Source: Octopus vulgaris
Lineage: Eukaryota
Direction: 5' to 3'
Length of the DNA stretch: 64,000 nt
NCBI GenBank assembly: GCA_951406725.2
Contig: OX597818.1
Coordinates: 56,854,001-56,918,000 of the forward strand
Part shown: piece by piece, positions 25,881 through 55,377 of the stretch
How positions within the stretch are numbered: the first letter of the stretch is position 1
Layout: every line of letters starts with the position of its first letter
Notes under the pieces: model-generated
The model's database searches: none
What the model was told of the DNA's origin: nothing
Seen by the model: the letters and a program-made list of their open reading frames with translations, nothing else
Position numbers and translations under genes: made by a program

Positions 25881-27115
25881 ATCATCATCATCATCATCAT
25901 CATCGTTTAGCGTCCGCTTTCCCTGCTAGCATGGGTTGGACGGTTCAACTGGGTTCTGGGAAGCCAGAAGGCTGCGCCAGGCCCAGTCTCATCTGGCAAT
26001 GTTTCTACGACTGGATGCCCTTCCTAACGCCAACAACTCCGTGAGTGTAGTAGGTGCTTTTTAGTGCCAGACGAGGCTGGCAAATGGTCACGATCGGACG
26101 GTGCTTTTTACGTGCCACCGGTACAGGTGCCAGGCGAGACTGGCAAACGGCCACGATCGGATGGTGCTTTTTACGTGCCACCGGTACAGGTGCCAGGCGA
26201 GGCTGGCAACGGCCACGATCGGATGGTGCTTTTTATGTGCCACCGGTACAGGTGCCAGGCGAGGCTGGCAACGGCCACGATCGGATGGTGCTTTTTATGT
26301 GCCACCGGTACAGGTGCCAGGCGAGGCTGGCAACGGCCACGATTGGATGGTGCTTTTTACGTGCCACCGGTACAGGTGCCAGGCGAGGCTGGCAACGGCC
26401 ACGATCGGACGGTGCTTTTTATGTGCCACCGGTACAGGTGCCAGGCGAGGCTGGCAACGGCCACGATCGGATGGTGCTTTTTACGTGCCACCGGTACAGG
26501 TGCCAGGCGAGGCTGGCAACGGCCACGATCGGATGGTGCTTTTTACATGCCACCAGTACAGGTGCCAGGCGAGACTGGCAAACGGCCACAATCGGATGGT
26601 GCTTTTTACGTGCCACCGGTACAGGTGCCAGGTGAAGCTGGCAACGGCCACGATCGGATGGTGCTTTTTACGTGCCACCGGTACAGGTGCCAGGCGAGGC
26701 TGGCAAACGGCCACGATCGGATGGTGCTTTTTACGTGCCACCGGTACAGGTGCCAGGCGAGGCTGGCAACGGCCACGATCGGATGGTGCTTTTTACATGC
26801 CACCAGTACAGGTGCCAGGCGAGACTGGCAACGGCCACGATCGGATGGTGCTTTTTACGTGCCACCGGTACAGGTGCCAGGCGAGGCTGGCAACGGCCAC
26901 GATCGGATGGTGCTTTTTACGTGCCACCAGTACAGGTGCCAGGCGAGACTGGCAAACGCCCACAATCGGATGGTGCTTTTTACGTGCCACCGATACAGGT
27001 GCCAGGCGAGGCTGGCAACGGCCACGATCGGATGGTGCTTTTTACGTGCCACCGGTACAGGTGCCAGGCGAGGCTGGCAACGGCCACGATCGGATGGTGC
27101 TTTTTACGTGCCACT
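25881..27115 (-). mobile_element. RTE LINE 3' end with an expanded internal 62-bp minisatellite
   Basis: (cat)n tail and RTE terminal block at 25881-26050, followed by the tandem array. Confidence 0.85.
26052..27115. repeat. Tandem array of ~17 x 62-63-bp units
   Basis: Unit gatggtgctttttacgtgccaccggtacaggtgccaggcgaggctggcaacggccacgatcg; period 62 (e.g. 26401 and 26463). Confidence 0.95.
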
Positions 27116-31996: not shown

Positions 31997-34900
31997 TAAC
32001 TTAGAATAACTTAGAATAAGTTATTCTTGACTAGCTATAATGAATCTAGCAAAAGAACTGGAAAAAAACATCCGAGCTATCACCCACCGCCATCCACCAC
32101 TATTACCCCACTACACATGCCATTAAAAAGCAATCAAATAAACAAATCACCAAAACAATTAAAACCATCCACTCTCGCCTCAACATTTCTGCTTAATGCC
32201 CAAGGCATCAGCCCTTCCACCAATACACAAAAATGGAAGATAAGATTCCTGGAGGACTGGGTCGAGGCCCATCCAAACCACATCCCTTTCTTCGTCCTCA
32301 CTGAAACCCATCTTAGTGACCTCCACTTGGAAGCCGAGGTGAAAGTTAAAAATTTCAAAACCATTCGTGCTGATCGTGTTGGCAGAAGAAAGGGTGGGAC
32401 TGCCATTTATGTCCATGATTCATTCTCAACAGAAGCCATGAACATATTTTCGAATGGATACTGCGAAGCAGTCGCTGTATTCAGTCAAACCAACAACTTA
32501 ACAGTAGTTGGGCTCTACAGACCACCCCAAACGCCCCTACCATGCTTCAAGGAATGCCTCAACAGCATAAAGTGTTTCATTCAGCAGTGTCAACCTGACA
32601 ACATTTTAATGATGGGAGATTTCAACCTTCCCGGGGTTGACTGGTCTACAAACAGTCTGTCGCCAGGTTCTTCTCTCTCAACCCCTGACAGGGAGGCAGT
32701 GGAATCGCTTCTTGACTTCATGGATGACTTCTTCTTGTCCCAACTGGTACTCGAACCAACGAGATATCACAAAAACGTCTTAGACTTAATTTTCAGCAAT
32801 CACACTGATACTATCCACAATATTGCAGTGGAGAAAACCCTACTCTCCGACCATGACATGGTTCTCTGTGATCTGAGATTTCACTGGCCAAAATGCAAAA
32901 CAAATGTCATCCCTCCTGTTCATCCATTTGACACTATGGATTTCCACAATGCAAACTGGGAAGCGATCAATAATGATCTTGCACAAGTCGATTGGTCCTT
33001 CACGCACACATACACACCCACTAACATCAAAAAGTCCTGGCAGTCACTTGTAGACACCATCACGAACATATGTGCAAGACACACCCCATTAAGATCTGCA
33101 AACAAATCTAAGTGTCGAATCCCTAGAAATAGAAAATCTCTCATAAGGAAAATTAAAAGAATCAACAAAAAGATCAACATGCTGAAATACTGTCAACAGC
33201 AACACACCAACCTGACTGCCATCTCGTCGCTAGAGATTAAAAAACATAAACTCCAAAACAACATGATGTCTATCATCAATAGTCAGCGAAGAGCTGAAGA
33301 GGCCTGGGCCATTGAGAAGATCAAACTCAATCCCAAAGTGTTCTTTTCATTTGCAAAAAAACACAGAGTCACTGGTTCTACTGTTGGCCCTCTGATTGAT
33401 GAAAATGGTATTCTTCAAGACAATGCCAAAACCATGGGAGAAATATTGCAGAAACAATATTGCTCTGTTTTCAGCAATCCTGATATGACTGATCTGGGCT
33501 GTATCAGTGATGTTACTCCCCAATACACTTTATCGGACATAACATTTGGCGCTCCTGATGTCTTAGCAGCAATAAAGGAAATGAAGCATAATTCAGCAGT
33601 AGGTCCCGATAGGTTCCCTGCTTGTGTCTTGAAGATGTGTCAAAACCAACTTGCACCCCCTCTAGCCAATCTGTGGCGGAACTCATTGGATGCTGGATAT
33701 ATACCAGAAGACCTTCTATCCCAGTCTGTTGTCCCAGTTTTCAAAAAAGGAAACAAATCGCTTGCCGTGAATTACCGTCCAATCTCACTCACCTCTCATA
33801 TCATCAAGGTATTTGAGAGGGTGCTGAGATCGCGTATGACTCACTTCCTTGAGAGTCATAATATGCTGAACCCCAACCAGCATGGATTCCGTAATGGGAG
33901 AGATTGCCTGACGCAGCTACTGCATCATTTTGATGACATTTTGAGAGCCTTGGGAGAGGGTTCCAACACTGATGTCATCTACCTTGATTTCAGCAAGGCC
34001 TTTGACAGGGTTGATCATAAGATCCTTCTGAGAAAGCTGTCCAATATTGGTGTCACTGGAAAGCTGCTGCAATGGATCAAGTGCTTCCTCTCTAACAGAA
34101 CCCAACATGTTGTAGTCGAAGGAGTCAAATCCAGCCCAGCCAAAGTCAGCAGTGGTGTCCCACAAGGCACTGTGTTGGGCCCACTTCTCTTCATCATCTA
34201 CATAAATGATATTACTGACACCATCAAACACAGCAACATCAGAACCTTCGCTGATGATTCCAAGCTCCAGAAGGTCATCAATGGCGTGGATGACCGAATA
34301 AACCTTCAGTCAGACCTACTAGCTGTTGTCCAATGGGCGGAAAAGAATAACATGTTGCTAAATGAAGACAAATTCGAACTGATCCACTTTGGAAGGGAGG
34401 ACGCTCTGAAACTCCCATACTCTCTTCCTTCTGGAGAAATTCTCATGGCATCCAACAACATCAGAGACCTGGGAGTAACAGTGGACAACAACATAAGCTG
34501 GGCTACACATATAAGCAGCAAAGTTGACATGGCCCGCAGAATGTGTTCCTGGATTCTCAGAACCTTCCAGTCGAGAGATTCCCACGCTATTATCCTTCTC
34601 TTCTCCACTTTTGCCCGACCCCACCTTGAATACTGCTGTCCACTGTGGTCTCCCTACACAAAACAAAATATTATGAGAATTGAAGCTCCCCAAAGGTCAA
34701 TCACAAAAAAGATAGATGGCATGTCAGACCTTGACTACTGGGGTAGACTAGAGAAGCTGAAATTGTATTCACTCCAACGACGCCGTGAACGCTACATTAT
34801 CTGTATGATGTGGAAAATATTCCATCAGCACTGTCCGAATGATGTTGGCATCACCTTCAAAATGCATCCAAGGCTTGGACCACGTGCCATCCGTCCACAA

Positions 34901-35222
34901 CAAAAATCTAAATCGCATCACATAACGACAATACGGCACAACTATTTCACCTCAATTGGACCCGCTCTCTTCAACATTACACCAGGACACGTCAAAAAAG
35001 AAACTGACCACACAAAATTCAAGAAGTCTTTGGACAAATTCCTTCAAACAGTACCGGACAAACCATCCACACCCGGATATGTCTCCGCAAACAATAACTC
35101 TCTGCTCGAATGGGCCTTGGTGCCCAAATCCTGAACTGAAAGACTTCGCCAGGTGGTGCTATTAAGTTAGACATGGCCTGGGCCAATACTGGCCAAAAAC
35201 CTTTCTAAGTTATTCTAAGTTA
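31997..35222 (+). mobile_element. CR1-group non-LTR retrotransposon (ORF2 only) with 20-bp terminal inverted repeats
   Basis: Intact APE-RT ORF, short 3' UTR and a (TTCTAAGTTA)2 tail. The 5' end is the exact reverse complement of the tail. (TA)n on both sides. Confidence 0.93.
32027..35134 (+). CDS. LINE ORF2: apurinic-type endonuclease plus reverse transcriptase (1035 aa; first ATG at 32117)
   Basis: APE motifs LNAQG, LTETHL, GGTAIYV, YRPP, GDFN, LDL, SDH. RT motifs NYRPISLTS, QHGFR, YLDFSKAFD, GVPQGTVLGP, FADD, DLGV. CR1-type RPHLEYC..WSP and SLQRRR. No stops or frameshifts. Confidence 0.95.
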   Translation: MTSYNESSKRTGKKHPSYHPPPSTTITPLHMPLKSNQINKSPKQLKPSTLASTFLLNAQGISPSTNTQKWKIRFLEDWVEAHPNHIPFFVLTETHLSDLHLEAEVKVKNFKTIRADRVGRRKGGTAIYVHDSFSTEAMNIFSNGYCEAVAVFSQTNNLTVVGLYRPPQTPLPCFKECLNSIKCFIQQCQPDNILMMGDFNLPGVDWSTNSLSPGSSLSTPDREAVESLLDFMDDFFLSQLVLEPTRYHKNVLDLIFSNHTDTIHNIAVEKTLLSDHDMVLCDLRFHWPKCKTNVIPPVHPFDTMDFHNANWEAINNDLAQVDWSFTHTYTPTNIKKSWQSLVDTITNICARHTPLRSANKSKCRIPRNRKSLIRKIKRINKKINMLKYCQQQHTNLTAISSLEIKKHKLQNNMMSIINSQRRAEEAWAIEKIKLNPKVFFSFAKKHRVTGSTVGPLIDENGILQDNAKTMGEILQKQYCSVFSNPDMTDLGCISDVTPQYTLSDITFGAPDVLAAIKEMKHNSAVGPDRFPACVLKMCQNQLAPPLANLWRNSLDAGYIPEDLLSQSVVPVFKKGNKSLAVNYRPISLTSHIIKVFERVLRSRMTHFLESHNMLNPNQHGFRNGRDCLTQLLHHFDDILRALGEGSNTDVIYLDFSKAFDRVDHKILLRKLSNIGVTGKLLQWIKCFLSNRTQHVVVEGVKSSPAKVSSGVPQGTVLGPLLFIIYINDITDTIKHSNIRTFADDSKLQKVINGVDDRINLQSDLLAVVQWAEKNNMLLNEDKFELIHFGREDALKLPYSLPSGEILMASNNIRDLGVTVDNNISWATHISSKVDMARRMCSWILRTFQSRDSHAIILLFSTFARPHLEYCCPLWSPYTKQNIMRIEAPQRSITKKIDGMSDLDYWGRLEKLKLYSLQRRRERYIICMMWKIFHQHCPNDVGITFKMHPRLGPRAIRPQQKSKSHHITTIRHNYFTSIGPALFNITPGHVKKETDHTKFKKSLDKFLQTVPDKPSTPGYVSANNNSLLEWALVPKS

Positions 35223-51080: not shown

Positions 51081-51525
51081 ATAGAATGGTTGTATACTGT
51101 CAATCTGACACGAACGTGACAGTAGGGGTGTACACCACCGCTGTTTAGCCCTAGGAAGCATCGACGCCTCCTGATGGCTTTGACACATTTCTCCTGTGTC
51201 CTTATATACATTTACGAAGGGGAGACAAATACCCCCAGCCGCCAGGGCTGCATCTAGGGACATGTGTTTCAGGATGATTGTCCTTCGTCGGCCTAGACTA
51301 GCAGACACTGGTCAGCTGATGATATTTGCTTCGACTTCGTAATGTATATATCTAAATTTCAGTGAAGTCTATTCACTGATTATCATAATCAGAAATACTA
51401 AATTTCTAAATCTTTCATAGAGACATGTACGGTGGTGGGGCGTTCGTATTAGATTGACAGTATACAACCATTCTATCGCCCCACCACCGTACATGTCTCT
51501 ATGAGAGATTTAGAAATTTAGTATT

Positions 51526-51528
<3 letters not shown>
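51081..51528 (-). mobile_element. Retrozyme/Penelope-like non-coding element: 362-bp monomer plus an inverted junction copy
   Basis: Hammerhead at 51253-51297. 51441-51528 is the reverse complement of the monomer end joined to the monomer start. (TA)n on both sides. Confidence 0.8.
51253..51297 (-). ncRNA. Type-I hammerhead ribozyme motif
   Basis: Minus strand reads TCTAGG|CCGACGA|AGGA-caatca-TCCT|GAAA|C-ACAT-GTC^|CCTAGA, with perfect stems I and II. Confidence 0.8.
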
Positions 51529-51570
<42 letters not shown>

Positions 51571-51874
51571 CTTTTATTCTTTTATTTGTTTCAATCATTT
51601 GACTGTGGTCATGCTGGAGCACTGCTTTTACAAAGAATAAGTCCTGGGGGTGATTTGTTCGAATAAAGCCCTTTAAGGTGGTGCTCCAGCATGGCTGCAG
51701 TCAAATGACTGAAACAAGTAAAGGAATTAAAGAATAAAAAATACAAGAATAAAAGAATTGCACAATCGTTTCAAGGTAGAACACAACTCTGTTTTGTGAC
51801 ACAGATTCAAATTCTTGAGTTCATATTTACTGCAGAGCTGTTTGTAGTTCAGCAGTAAATTTAATAGAAATGTT

Positions 51875-52347
51875 ACATTTCTAAATCTCTCAGAGAGAGT
51901 GTTGCAGTAACAGCATGATAAAGTGATGGCTTGTTGCTAACTTAATGTGGCAGTCCCAGGAAAGGGAAGAATGTTACTGTTATTTAGCCCTAAGAAACAT
52001 CGTTTCTAGTTGGCTGCACGACACAAGCGTTCTGTGTTCTTAAGTTTTCAAACAGGGGAGAAAAGCACCTCCACCTAACAAAGCCAGCATTCAGAGACAA
52101 GTTTCAGGGTTATTGCTCTTCATTAGTCTGGGGTAGTTTGGCCTTGCTAGATGTCACTGCTAATCCGTTGTTGAAAACTTATAGGATTTCAAGTGATATA
52201 CATTCTCTGATCTTCAAAAATATCTCAGAGTGAGTTATGCAGTAACAGCACAACAAAGTGATGGCTTGTTGCCATTTTAATGTGAGTCCCAGGAAAGGGA
52301 AGAATGTTACTGTTATTTAGTCCCAAGAAACACCGTTTTTAGTTGGC
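51875..52347 (-). mobile_element. Retrozyme-like tandem repeat (~335-bp period, ~1.4 units) with a hammerhead at 52092-52130
   Basis: 51888-52014 is repeated at 52223-52347. Minus strand reads CAGA|CTAATGA|AGAG-caataa-CCCT|GAAA|C-TT-GTC^|TCTG. Homologous to the 51081 element. Confidence 0.7.
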
Positions 52348-52889: not shown

Positions 52890-53315
52890 ACCATGATAGA
52901 TCAGTAGCCACTACACTCATTTTTTTCTCTCCTTGTTTTTTCTGTGTCCCTTCCTGTAGAAGAGTGTAGGCTCGAAACGTAAAAGACTTTTTCTATTCCT
53001 GAGCGTTAAACTAATACTTCAGTTTGTTTTCTACACCACCTGTCTTCGTCTTTTGTTTTTTTCGTGAATTCTCTCCATATATATATATATATATATGTAT
53101 ATCTTTTTGTGTCTATGTTTGCCCTCCCAACATAGCTTGGCAACTGATGTTGGTGTGATTACGTCCCCGTAACTTAGCAGTTCAGCAAAAGACACTGATA
53201 GAATAAGTACTAAGCTTACAAAGAATAAGTCCTAGGGTCGATTTGCTCTCCTAAAGGCGGTGCTCCAGCATGGCTGCAGTCAAATGACTGAAACAAATAA
53301 AAGAATAAAAGAATA
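52697..53315 (+). mobile_element. SINE family A with a Penelope-like insert (52890-53076; hammerhead-like motif 52951-52984)
   Basis: CTGTAGA-A-GAGT-gtag-GCTC-GAAA-C-GTA-aaag, inside the SINE (TA)n. Confidence 0.75.
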
Positions 53316-53641
53316 TATTAGCCAGAAAAATCCACAATGTGCTGAGGGCAGAATAGGTGAACCTCAATATGGCAAGTGATTACTGTATACCTTAGTTCAT
53401 CTCTAAAGATGTGGTTGCTGCCTACAAGATCAGCCTGGGGTTAAACTAGTAGTAACATGGAACAACCACTTTGATTTGGTGACTGACTTTACTTTATGGT
53501 ATTGTTACTACCCTGATCTCTTCTTGAGATTTTACGACTAGCTCTTTTGCTTGTTGCAAATCAGTGACCAATGGTCACTTTTTTTTACAATATATTGCTG
53601 GCTGGAGTGGTCTCTGGCTGTTGCTCAGACGGCCAGGTTTA

Positions 53642-53688
53642 CATGACTGAGGATGAATTAAGCAGCTTGAAACTGGGTCAGTCTTGTG
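53642..53688 (+). ncRNA. Type-I hammerhead motif, array unit 1
   Basis: CATGA|CTGAGGA|T-gaattaagcagctt|GAAA|CTG-GGT-CAG-TC^|TTGTG. Confidence 0.7.
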
Positions 53689-53738
53689 ATTCTGCTGTCT
53701 GCTAGAGGATGGTAGGGGTTCATTACCCCTGCTAGCAA

Positions 53739-54260
53739 TGGCCTGCTGTGCACAGGATGGCCTGCTGTGCTAACCTTGGATCGTGGGGAGACCTGCTGTG
53801 CTTGAGGAGACCTATTGAGTCAAGTACATCAACATCAAGATAAAAATCAAATGGAAATTGTAGTTGTGATACCCATGCCGGTGGCATATAAAAAGCACCA
53901 TCCGAACGTGGCCGATGCCAGCACCGCCTTGGCTGGCTTCCATGCCGGTGGCATGTAAAAGGCACCATCCGAACGTGGCCAATGCCAGTGCTGCCTTGGC
54001 TGGCTTCCATGCCGGTGGCATGTAAAAAGCACCATCCAATCATGGCTGTTGCCAGCTGCCTTTGGCCCCTGTGCTGGTGGCACATAAAAAGCACCCACTA
54101 CACTCACGGAGTGGTTGGCGTTAGGAAAGGCATCCAGCTGTAGAAACACTGCCAGATCAGACTGGAGCCTGGTGCAGCCTCCTGGCTCCCAGACCCCAGT
54201 CAAACCATCCAACCCATGCTAGCATGGAAAATGGACGTTAAACGATGATGATGATGATGA
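53739..54260 (+). mobile_element. RTE LINE 3' end
   Basis: Internal ~60-bp units, terminal block and GAT tail. Confidence 0.85.
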
Positions 54261-54404
54261 AAGGGTGTAGCGTTGCACTGATAACCAGCTGGCGGAAGAT
54301 CTGCCTGGGGTTAAACTAGTAGTAATATGGAACAGCCATTTTGATGTGGCGATTGACTTTTACTCGTTAGTATAATTACTGCTCTGATCTCTCCTTGAGA
54401 TTGT

Positions 54405-54758
54405 TTGATTGAGACCCCCTTCGGTCATGACTGACCGTGGGATTGCACCTAGAAAGTTACCTTCCCAGGCACAAGTCCAGGCAAGGTTGTTTATGGAAGA
54501 CCAGCAGTCGCCCATGCATACCGGCCTCCCCTCTCCGTGCCACCAGTGTTATCCAAGAGAAAGACAAAGGTCGATACAGCTTGGCACCTGTGACGTTGCA
54601 ACTCATTTCTACAGCTGAGTGAACTGGAGCAACGTGAAATAAAGTGTCTTGCTCAAGAACACAACATGCAGCCCGGTCTCTGATTTGAACTCACAACCTC
54701 ACAATCGTAAGCTCGACGCTCTAACCACTGAGCCATGTGTCTTCACTACATGCCTTCA
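54405..54758 (-). mobile_element. tRNA-derived SINE family D with an 11-bp TSD
   Basis: Minus-strand head tggctcagtggttagagcg..gagttcaaatc. TSD cttgagattgt at 54394-54404 and 54759-54769. The empty site is visible in the paralogous unit near 53523. Confidence 0.9.
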
Positions 54759-54874
54759 CTTGAGATTGTATAACTAGTTATTTTGCTTGTTGCAAATCAG
54801 TGACCGATGGTCATTTTGTTTACAATATATTGCTGGCTGGAGCAGACCTTGGCGATTGCTCAGGCGACCAGGTA

Positions 54875-54923
54875 CATGCGACAGAGGATGAGCCAACCAG
54901 CTTGAAACTGAGTCAGTCCCATG
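54875..54923 (+). ncRNA. Type-I hammerhead motif, array unit 2 (core mutated to CAGAGGA)
   Basis: CATGCGA|CAGAGGA|T-GAGC-caacca-GCTT|GAAA|CTGAGTCAG-TC^|CCATG. Confidence 0.6.
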
Positions 54924-54976
54924 ACCTGTTGTCTGCTAGAGGACAGTAGGGGTTCACTCCTCCTGCAAGCAATATA

Positions 54977-55015
<39 letters not shown>

Positions 55016-55232
55016 GATGCAGTGCTGCACCGATAACCAGCTGGCGGAAGATCTGCCTGGGGTTAAACTAGTAGTAACATGGATCAGCCACTTTGATGTG
55101 GTGACTGACTTTTGATATTAATTTGTTTTCCGTTTAATACCTCATGGAATTGACTGTAAGCAGCACCGTTTTTATGAGTCTCTTCAAGGTCGCCATAGTA
55201 GTAGTAGTAGTAGCAGTAGTAGCAGTAGTAGC

Positions 55233-55269
<37 letters not shown>

Positions 55270-55377
55270 ATTTTCGCTTTAATTTTAGTAGGTTTTTACC
55301 GACACATTTTCCATTTACATTGACTTTTCAGCCATATCACGAAAGATTAAATTTGATTGATTAGAGTAAAATTAGTT

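Follow-up and report, generated by a model that had tools for sequence, protein, structure and literature searches.

A decayed tandem array in Octopus vulgaris as a likely dead copy of a hammerhead-bearing non-LTR retrozyme family

The locus that we describe here is a head-to-tail array of 2.3 units of a multi-copy, non-coding repeat of about 350-365 nt, every full unit of which bears a hammerhead motif of type I. It lies in a window of 64,000 nucleotides (the whole stretch of DNA that was analysed; Octopus vulgaris, contig OX597818.1, positions 56,854,001 to 56,918,000), and it is likely, at a probability that we put at roughly 0.8, to be a dead copy from a family of non-LTR retrozymes, non-coding mobile elements known from animals, in which the tandem transcripts would have undergone self-cleavage to RNAs of unit length. 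A tandem layout, a multi-copy family, hammerhead anatomy, decay and later insertions come together at this place and, judged by its sequence, the array displays every testable sequence feature of a metazoan non-LTR retrozyme. Our verdict is that of a decayed copy of a new family within the known retrozyme class.

All parts of the array lie on the forward strand. The first 314 nt of unit 1 occupy 53426-53739 and start abruptly, family sequence being absent upstream, and the remainder of this unit, a linker at 54260-54295, is 83% alike to 55012-55047. Alignment of the copies places the 5' part of unit 2 at 54296-54404 and its 3' part at 54759-54973, while the stretch 55013-55113 holds the end of unit 2 (again a linker) together with a partial unit 3 (55048-55113) that is without hammerhead. 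When the window is compared to itself, the identity between copies amounts to 84% for 53426-53531 and 54296-54402, 82% for 53523-53739 and 54759-54973, 90% for 54262-54361 and 55014-55113, and 94% for 53426-53490 and 55048-55112. The anchors given in the preliminary description (53433, 54303 and 55055) are exact, and its count of about 2.3 diverged copies, which run head to tail, is confirmed. So is its spacing of about 350 bp: the two predicted cut sites lie 1235 nt apart, and 350 nt are left once 520 and 365 nt of insertion are subtracted. This length, and that of about 363 nt in the family, fall within the 150-450 bp of the head-to-tail units of non-LTR retrozymes. The units have 44.9% GC over 764 nt and are non-coding, the longest stop-free frame over 53300-55300 being 123 aa, in agreement with the GC content below 50%, often below 45%, and the non-coding nature of such retrozymes. 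No LTR layout is visible at the array. It had also been said to be unrelated to a repeat family at 51-52 kb, and blastn indeed finds no similarity between the two. That other family (51082-52347) includes 144 nt that are self-inverted (51388-51531, 86%), a single CTGATGA at 51316 and a direct pair that is 88% alike and 335 bp apart (51883-52014 and 52218-52347), and its inversion layout resembles a Penelope-type insertion.

The repeat is found far beyond this locus. Contigs from 4 of 24 sequencing runs were aligned to 53340-53770 at a cut-off of 80% likeness. Three DNA runs, each with a species label of its own, contribute 657, 954 and 793 matching contigs, and one of these runs (X1) is possibly the window's own sample. 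Such numbers per DNA run set aside the single-locus repeat that the preliminary description had named as incompatible with its reading. Single positions are covered by some 80-100 distinct contigs, and depth is not to be read as a copy number. Among the best 15 of 74 joints, the one that leads from 53739 back to 53426 is present in 3, 2 and 1 contigs of the three DNA runs, and therefore other copies of the family are also arranged head to tail. The family matches break near 53480-53495, where the agreement of the loose ends is intermediate (0.53-0.55); this break may mark a preferred 3' end of the family, or a small indel there, which likewise breaks the alignment. Run X11, whose RNA type is a guess, provided 26 contigs at 80-95% likeness, of which one shows the head-to-tail joint and none reaches into 53625-53669, and was not taken as evidence of expression. 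In this run, the depth of one 85-nt family contig (53429-53495) is 175, compared to 3-18 in the seven further contigs listed; it may stem from a subfamily that is expressed, or from the collapse of a repeat. No match to the family patterns was found in viral contigs and metagenome contigs. Three prokaryote matches to a family 20-mer, of 20-22 nt only, were rejected as chance, and four viral matches to a loose hammerhead pattern as unrelated to the family in sequence. An identical hammerhead-like motif, unrelated to the octopus family, is carried at 801-835 by three phage contigs (L001, L002 and L004).

Two later insertions interrupt the units. The SINE-like one in unit 2 (54405-54758) is flanked by an 11-bp duplication (54394-54404 and 54759-54769), just as expected from the earlier claim of a SINE with target site duplication. 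The other (53740-54259, forward strand) is a 5'-truncated, (GAT)n-tailed repeat, putatively an RTE end, in the TA-rich tract of unit 1; it has no duplication, and its portion 53871-54260 matches many further copies within the window. A LINE of the window (32015-35134) was rejected as its source, since the 3' end differs. This LINE has an uninterrupted, intact-looking ORF of 1039 aa with APE-endonuclease and reverse transcriptase; its nearest database relatives are just 48% identical, and the named matches of a search with it are from distant animals, at 34-35% identity. The SINE and LINE-end families of the window look octopus-like, although a search of the literature for motifs gave no match. 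At 26160-27114, there is also a tandem array of about 62-bp units that derive from an internal repeat of the (GAT)n-tailed element. As for the (TA)n tract at 54973-55012 on the forward strand, it had been counted as a third insertion, which we do not find: it is an expansion of the native TA-rich tract of the unit, seen in family copies of all three DNA runs. The loose ends behind 53739 start with a TA-rich tract in 3 of 3 DNA runs (agreement 0.56-0.63), and therefore the length of the family unit is about 363 nt, unit 2 has its (TA)n from the expansion of native sequence, and the (GAT)n-tailed element entered this same tract in unit 1, where about 13 nt are missing. The family loose end before 53426 is the sequence found upstream of units 2 and 3, unlike the left flank in the window. 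One contig with species label D (record 25) follows 53366-53739, left flank included, at about 90% identity, and its match ends at the insertion point; because of this one contig, we infer that the array is probably older than that species split and that the (GAT)n-tailed insertion came later. Coverage is missing at 53745-53770 in X4 and X9, a blank that does not show the insertion to be absent. On its left, the array adjoins the end of another multi-copy repeat (53353-53389), with high coverage and with low-agreement loose ends behind 53389, which we take to resemble a Tigger-like MITE end.

The preliminary description assigned one hammerhead to each full unit. This stands for the motifs, which are on the forward strand at 53647 and 54882 with predicted cut sites before 53684 and 54919, but the core of unit 2 has suffered a U4A change and its stem I is broken. 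Hammerhead 1 with its extended stem I covers 53626-53701 (core C3 at 53647, stem II 53655-53668, helix III 53672-53682, predicted cut after 53683). Its core is complete and of type I, with CUGAGGA (53647-53653), then an extra U (53654), and later GAAA and GUC. Helix III pairs at 4 of 4 positions and inner stem I at 5 of 6, two of them G-U, and stem II consists of G-U, A-U, an A/C mismatch and U-G. In hammerhead 2 (54861-54935), where U4 is replaced by A at 54883 and the homologous cut would fall after 54918, stem II is 4/4, the outer stem is intact, and helix III is 4/4 and palindromic as had been claimed, like that of the family. The extra U between A9 and G10.1 (at 54889 in unit 2) had been missed before; a register without it was rejected, as it yields U-U/U-C, G-U, then A-C. 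The CATG/CATG stem formerly proposed for unit 2 turns out to be out of register with the core, and 3 of the 6 inner stem I pairs form in the homologous register (1 Watson-Crick, 2 G-U). Outer stem I, likewise overlooked before, is long, with 11 pairs in both units, and it includes one case of a double change (G-C at 53632/53694-side in unit 1 versus A-U in unit 2). Unit 2 shows a UAC bulge (54873-54875) at a distance of six pairs from the core, and its loop II has 6 nt. In both respects it may resemble the tertiary-contact motif of Schistosoma, in which an internal UAC bulge faces a single U and loop II is likewise of 6 nt; unit 1 carries the single U.

At five places where the pairing of unit 1 is weak or mismatched, the letters of the other copies give Watson-Crick pairs, as far as can be read from 40 of 78 variant rows, which are unphased and do not amount to a covariation test. 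In runs X1, X4 and X9 respectively, C at 53668 (73/59/56% of depth) gives a G10.1-C11.1 pair, C at 53685 (68/70/52%) a G-C in stem I, C at 53691 (91/92/88%) a G-C, T at 53641 (74/100/60%, in only 2, 2 and 1 contigs) a U-A, and G at 53657 (6/72/67%, the majority in 2 of the 3 runs) a G-C in stem II, while A at 53676 (84/81/79%) makes helix III palindromic. T at 53627 (78/83/29%) breaks an outer pair unless a partner change lies beyond the rows listed, C at 53687 (61/56/43%) needs a G at 53643 that is found in 1 contig only, and one X4 contig across the hammerhead region has a damaged core. No variant falls on 53647-53654, 53669-53675 or 53677-53684 among the 40 of 78 rows listed. The preliminary description had made its case depend on the conservation of CUGANGA and GAAA: this holds better for GAAA, which is better covered together with helix III, than for the CUGANGA half, where the few contigs at 53640-53654 make the test a weaker one. 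The array bears a canonical type I hammerhead, complete in unit 1, homologous apart from U4A in unit 2, and with Watson-Crick stems favoured by the family letters.

A type I hammerhead in a tandem repeat could have another origin, and it is conceivable, if improbable, that the unit is the pseudo-LTR (the 3' end) of an autonomous Penelope-like element (PLE), in which case the array would be no independent retrozyme but a partial tandem of the PLE, heavily truncated on its 5' side. The extra nucleotide between A9 and G10.1 is conserved in the hammerheads of Penelope pseudo-LTRs, according to the accessible part of Cervera and de la Pena 2014 (PMC4209133), and a 2026 preprint derives retrozymes from pseudo-LTRs in its available text (10.64898/2026.07.22.740005). 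The metazoan minimal hammerheads of PLEs have, however, a long helix II (7-8 bp), a short helix I (4-5 bp) and little or no helix III in that same part of PMC4209133, whereas those of the octopus have a helix I of 6 bp with a long outer stem, a helix II of 4 bp and a helix III of 4 bp, all three canonical, and their helices I and II match the canonical metazoan type I given there. PLE insertions often come with inversions and with extensions of 30-40 bp (PMC8557442). Two opposite-strand joints were seen in our family among the best 15 of 74, each in 1 contig of two DNA runs, and a 16-nt sequence immediately left of the array (53408-53423, forward strand) is alike at 13 of 16 positions to the last bases of the array (55095-55110), a likeness reached in 1 of 1000 shuffles when compared post hoc to the last 40 nt. 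This possible insertion scar may be a degenerate duplication, a homology-primed insertion or a PLE-type extension; besides it, the longest exact word common to the two flanks has 6 nt, the target duplications of retrozymes exceeding 4 bp when present. Against this origin, the copies of the family are joined head to tail by a linker of about 49 nt without ORF, and the scan of 11 of the 55 ORFs of the window found one APE-RT LINE, no PLE domain and, adjoining the array, no ORF with reverse transcriptase and GIY-YIG.

It would be more surprising still if RNA cleavage had no part in the spread of the family, the hammerhead of an ancestor being already dead when the repeat multiplied as DNA (as a satellite or otherwise, through unequal exchange or through copying), which we hold to be very unlikely. 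Neither copy in the window folds into the hammerhead as a monomer, the active fold being at -8.1 against -30.0 for the MFE in unit 1 and at -10.3 against -25.5 in unit 2, in nearest-neighbour energies that leave out the core and the tertiary contacts. Moreover, 8 of 9 predicted Xenopus retrozyme dimers failed to cleave, according to the accessible part of the preprint (10.64898/2026.07.22.740005). The contigs over the hammerhead are also far fewer than those over 53430-53580, but such a low coverage is expected, because the two hammerheads of the window are only 75.5% alike, below the cut-off of 80% used; in addition, the array is short and dispersed, and the majority letters across copies favour Watson-Crick stems. 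That chance produced the motif in an otherwise ordinary repeat is hardly credible and already largely refuted: Rfam covariance models find no hammerhead family (0 gathering hits, and none among 23 hits at E<=10) and the type I descriptor was written post hoc, after the site was known, but this descriptor, which has 1 match on both strands of the window (53647; unit 2 fails it), is matched in 0 of 5000 unit shuffles with a strict core, in 2 of 5000 with a relaxed core and, averaged over 40 shuffles of the window, at 0.0 sites. Chance would also have to account for the three helices, for the outer stem of 11 pairs found in both units and for the family letters that restore stems.

For the dead retrozyme copy that we prefer, a plausible history can be drawn by analogy with known retrozymes, as presented in the accessible parts of PMC7229834 and PMC4209133. 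Read-through transcription of the array would have been followed by cleavage after GUC at 53683 and 54918, probably as a double hammerhead via the palindromic helix III; the monomer would have been ligated into a circle by a host ligase, and reverse transcription of more than one unit, probably by a Penelope-like element, would have given arrays with a non-integer copy number, such as this 2.3-mer. The decay that the preliminary description saw in these copies is borne out by the core change and the broken stem of unit 2, the weakened stems of unit 1, the two insertions and the TA expansion. Depletion of CpG in unit 1 (2 observed versus 14 expected) and an excess of transitions over transversions (42 versus 12) fit neutral decay. 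As for the self-pairing typical of retrozyme unit RNAs, unit 1 (53426-53739) folds at a z of -3.44 relative to shuffles, and the fragment of unit 2 (54769-54973) at -1.28, no better than shuffles. Two consecutive units with complete hammerheads define an active retrozyme in the available text of the preprint (10.64898/2026.07.22.740005), which is not the case here, given the U4A change and the broken stem I in unit 2; going by its letters, the locus should be inactive and should no longer release monomers.

The closest known counterpart is the 350-390-bp retrozyme family of Mytilus galloprovincialis (Cervera and de la Pena 2020, accessible part of PMC7229834), likened here by description and not by sequence: the two agree in the non-coding tandem unit, its size range, a GC of about 45%, the single type I hammerhead of each unit, the many genomic copies and the short arrays. 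The octopus family is set apart from that of the mussel by the extra U that follows A9, by a palindromic helix III of 4 pairs and by the helix predicted to lock the core, and the octopus locus is decayed. The satellite hammerheads of axolotl and newt, of 330-350 bp (same part of PMC7229834), are similar in unit size and in the palindrome of their helix III, for which the dimer is predicted to be the most active form, but their helix III has 1-2 pairs beyond the core, whereas that of the octopus has 3, with a 3-nt loop. The 6-bp stem I is shared with the type I hammerhead of Schistosoma mansoni Sm-alpha (available text of PMC6155905), from which the octopus hammerhead differs by its extra U9.1. 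In the CChMVd (+) hammerhead, an extra residue is found at the same site, between A9 and G10.1, where an extra U raised trans-cleavage 3-4-fold (accessible part of PMC3705267), and the octopus extra U is therefore compatible with activity, although the CChMVd (+) ribozyme is a type III hammerhead of a plant viroid, unlike the octopus type I.

The core of unit 1 and its two 5' neighbours (GACTGA, 53645-53650) are the exact complement of TCAGTC at 53678-53683 on the same forward strand, and the 6-bp helix that they are predicted to form in the monomer, also overlooked before, has a pair probability of 0.99-1.0. As predicted from this one decayed copy, with nearest-neighbour energies that omit the contacts within the core, such a helix would keep the core of a monomer or circle locked until a tandem partner released it. 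Helix III is far stronger as an inter-unit duplex (-11.4 to -13.2 kcal/mol) than as a hairpin (-0.5 kcal/mol), which makes a double hammerhead through its palindrome plausible. We propose, as a speculative idea, a cephalopod retrozyme family with an on/off switch, in which helix III repeats the core word so that the monomer or circle is locked, and the tandem transcript frees the core by the palindromic helix III of a double hammerhead; its hammerhead, with the Penelope-type extra nucleotide in a canonical type I frame, would also place this family between the Penelope pseudo-LTRs and the retrozymes. According to the accessible part of PMC7229834, the ribozyme is predicted to stay free in most circles of animal retrozymes, with some of the mussel as exceptions.

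Literature searches, which extended to sources other than subscription papers, Repbase/Dfam and the supplement of PMC7229834, found no cephalopod retrozyme in print, and the words octopus and cephalopod are absent from the main text of PMC7229834 and PMC7761336. In the accessible part of the 2026 repeat annotation of Octopus vulgaris (PMC13282606), the word ribozyme does not occur, and recently active Penelope insertions are listed. The array would thus add a retrozyme family in a lineage without one found in print. It bears on whether retrozymes descend from Penelope pseudo-LTRs outside vertebrates, and it would offer a concrete case for how animal retrozyme circles avoid re-cutting themselves.
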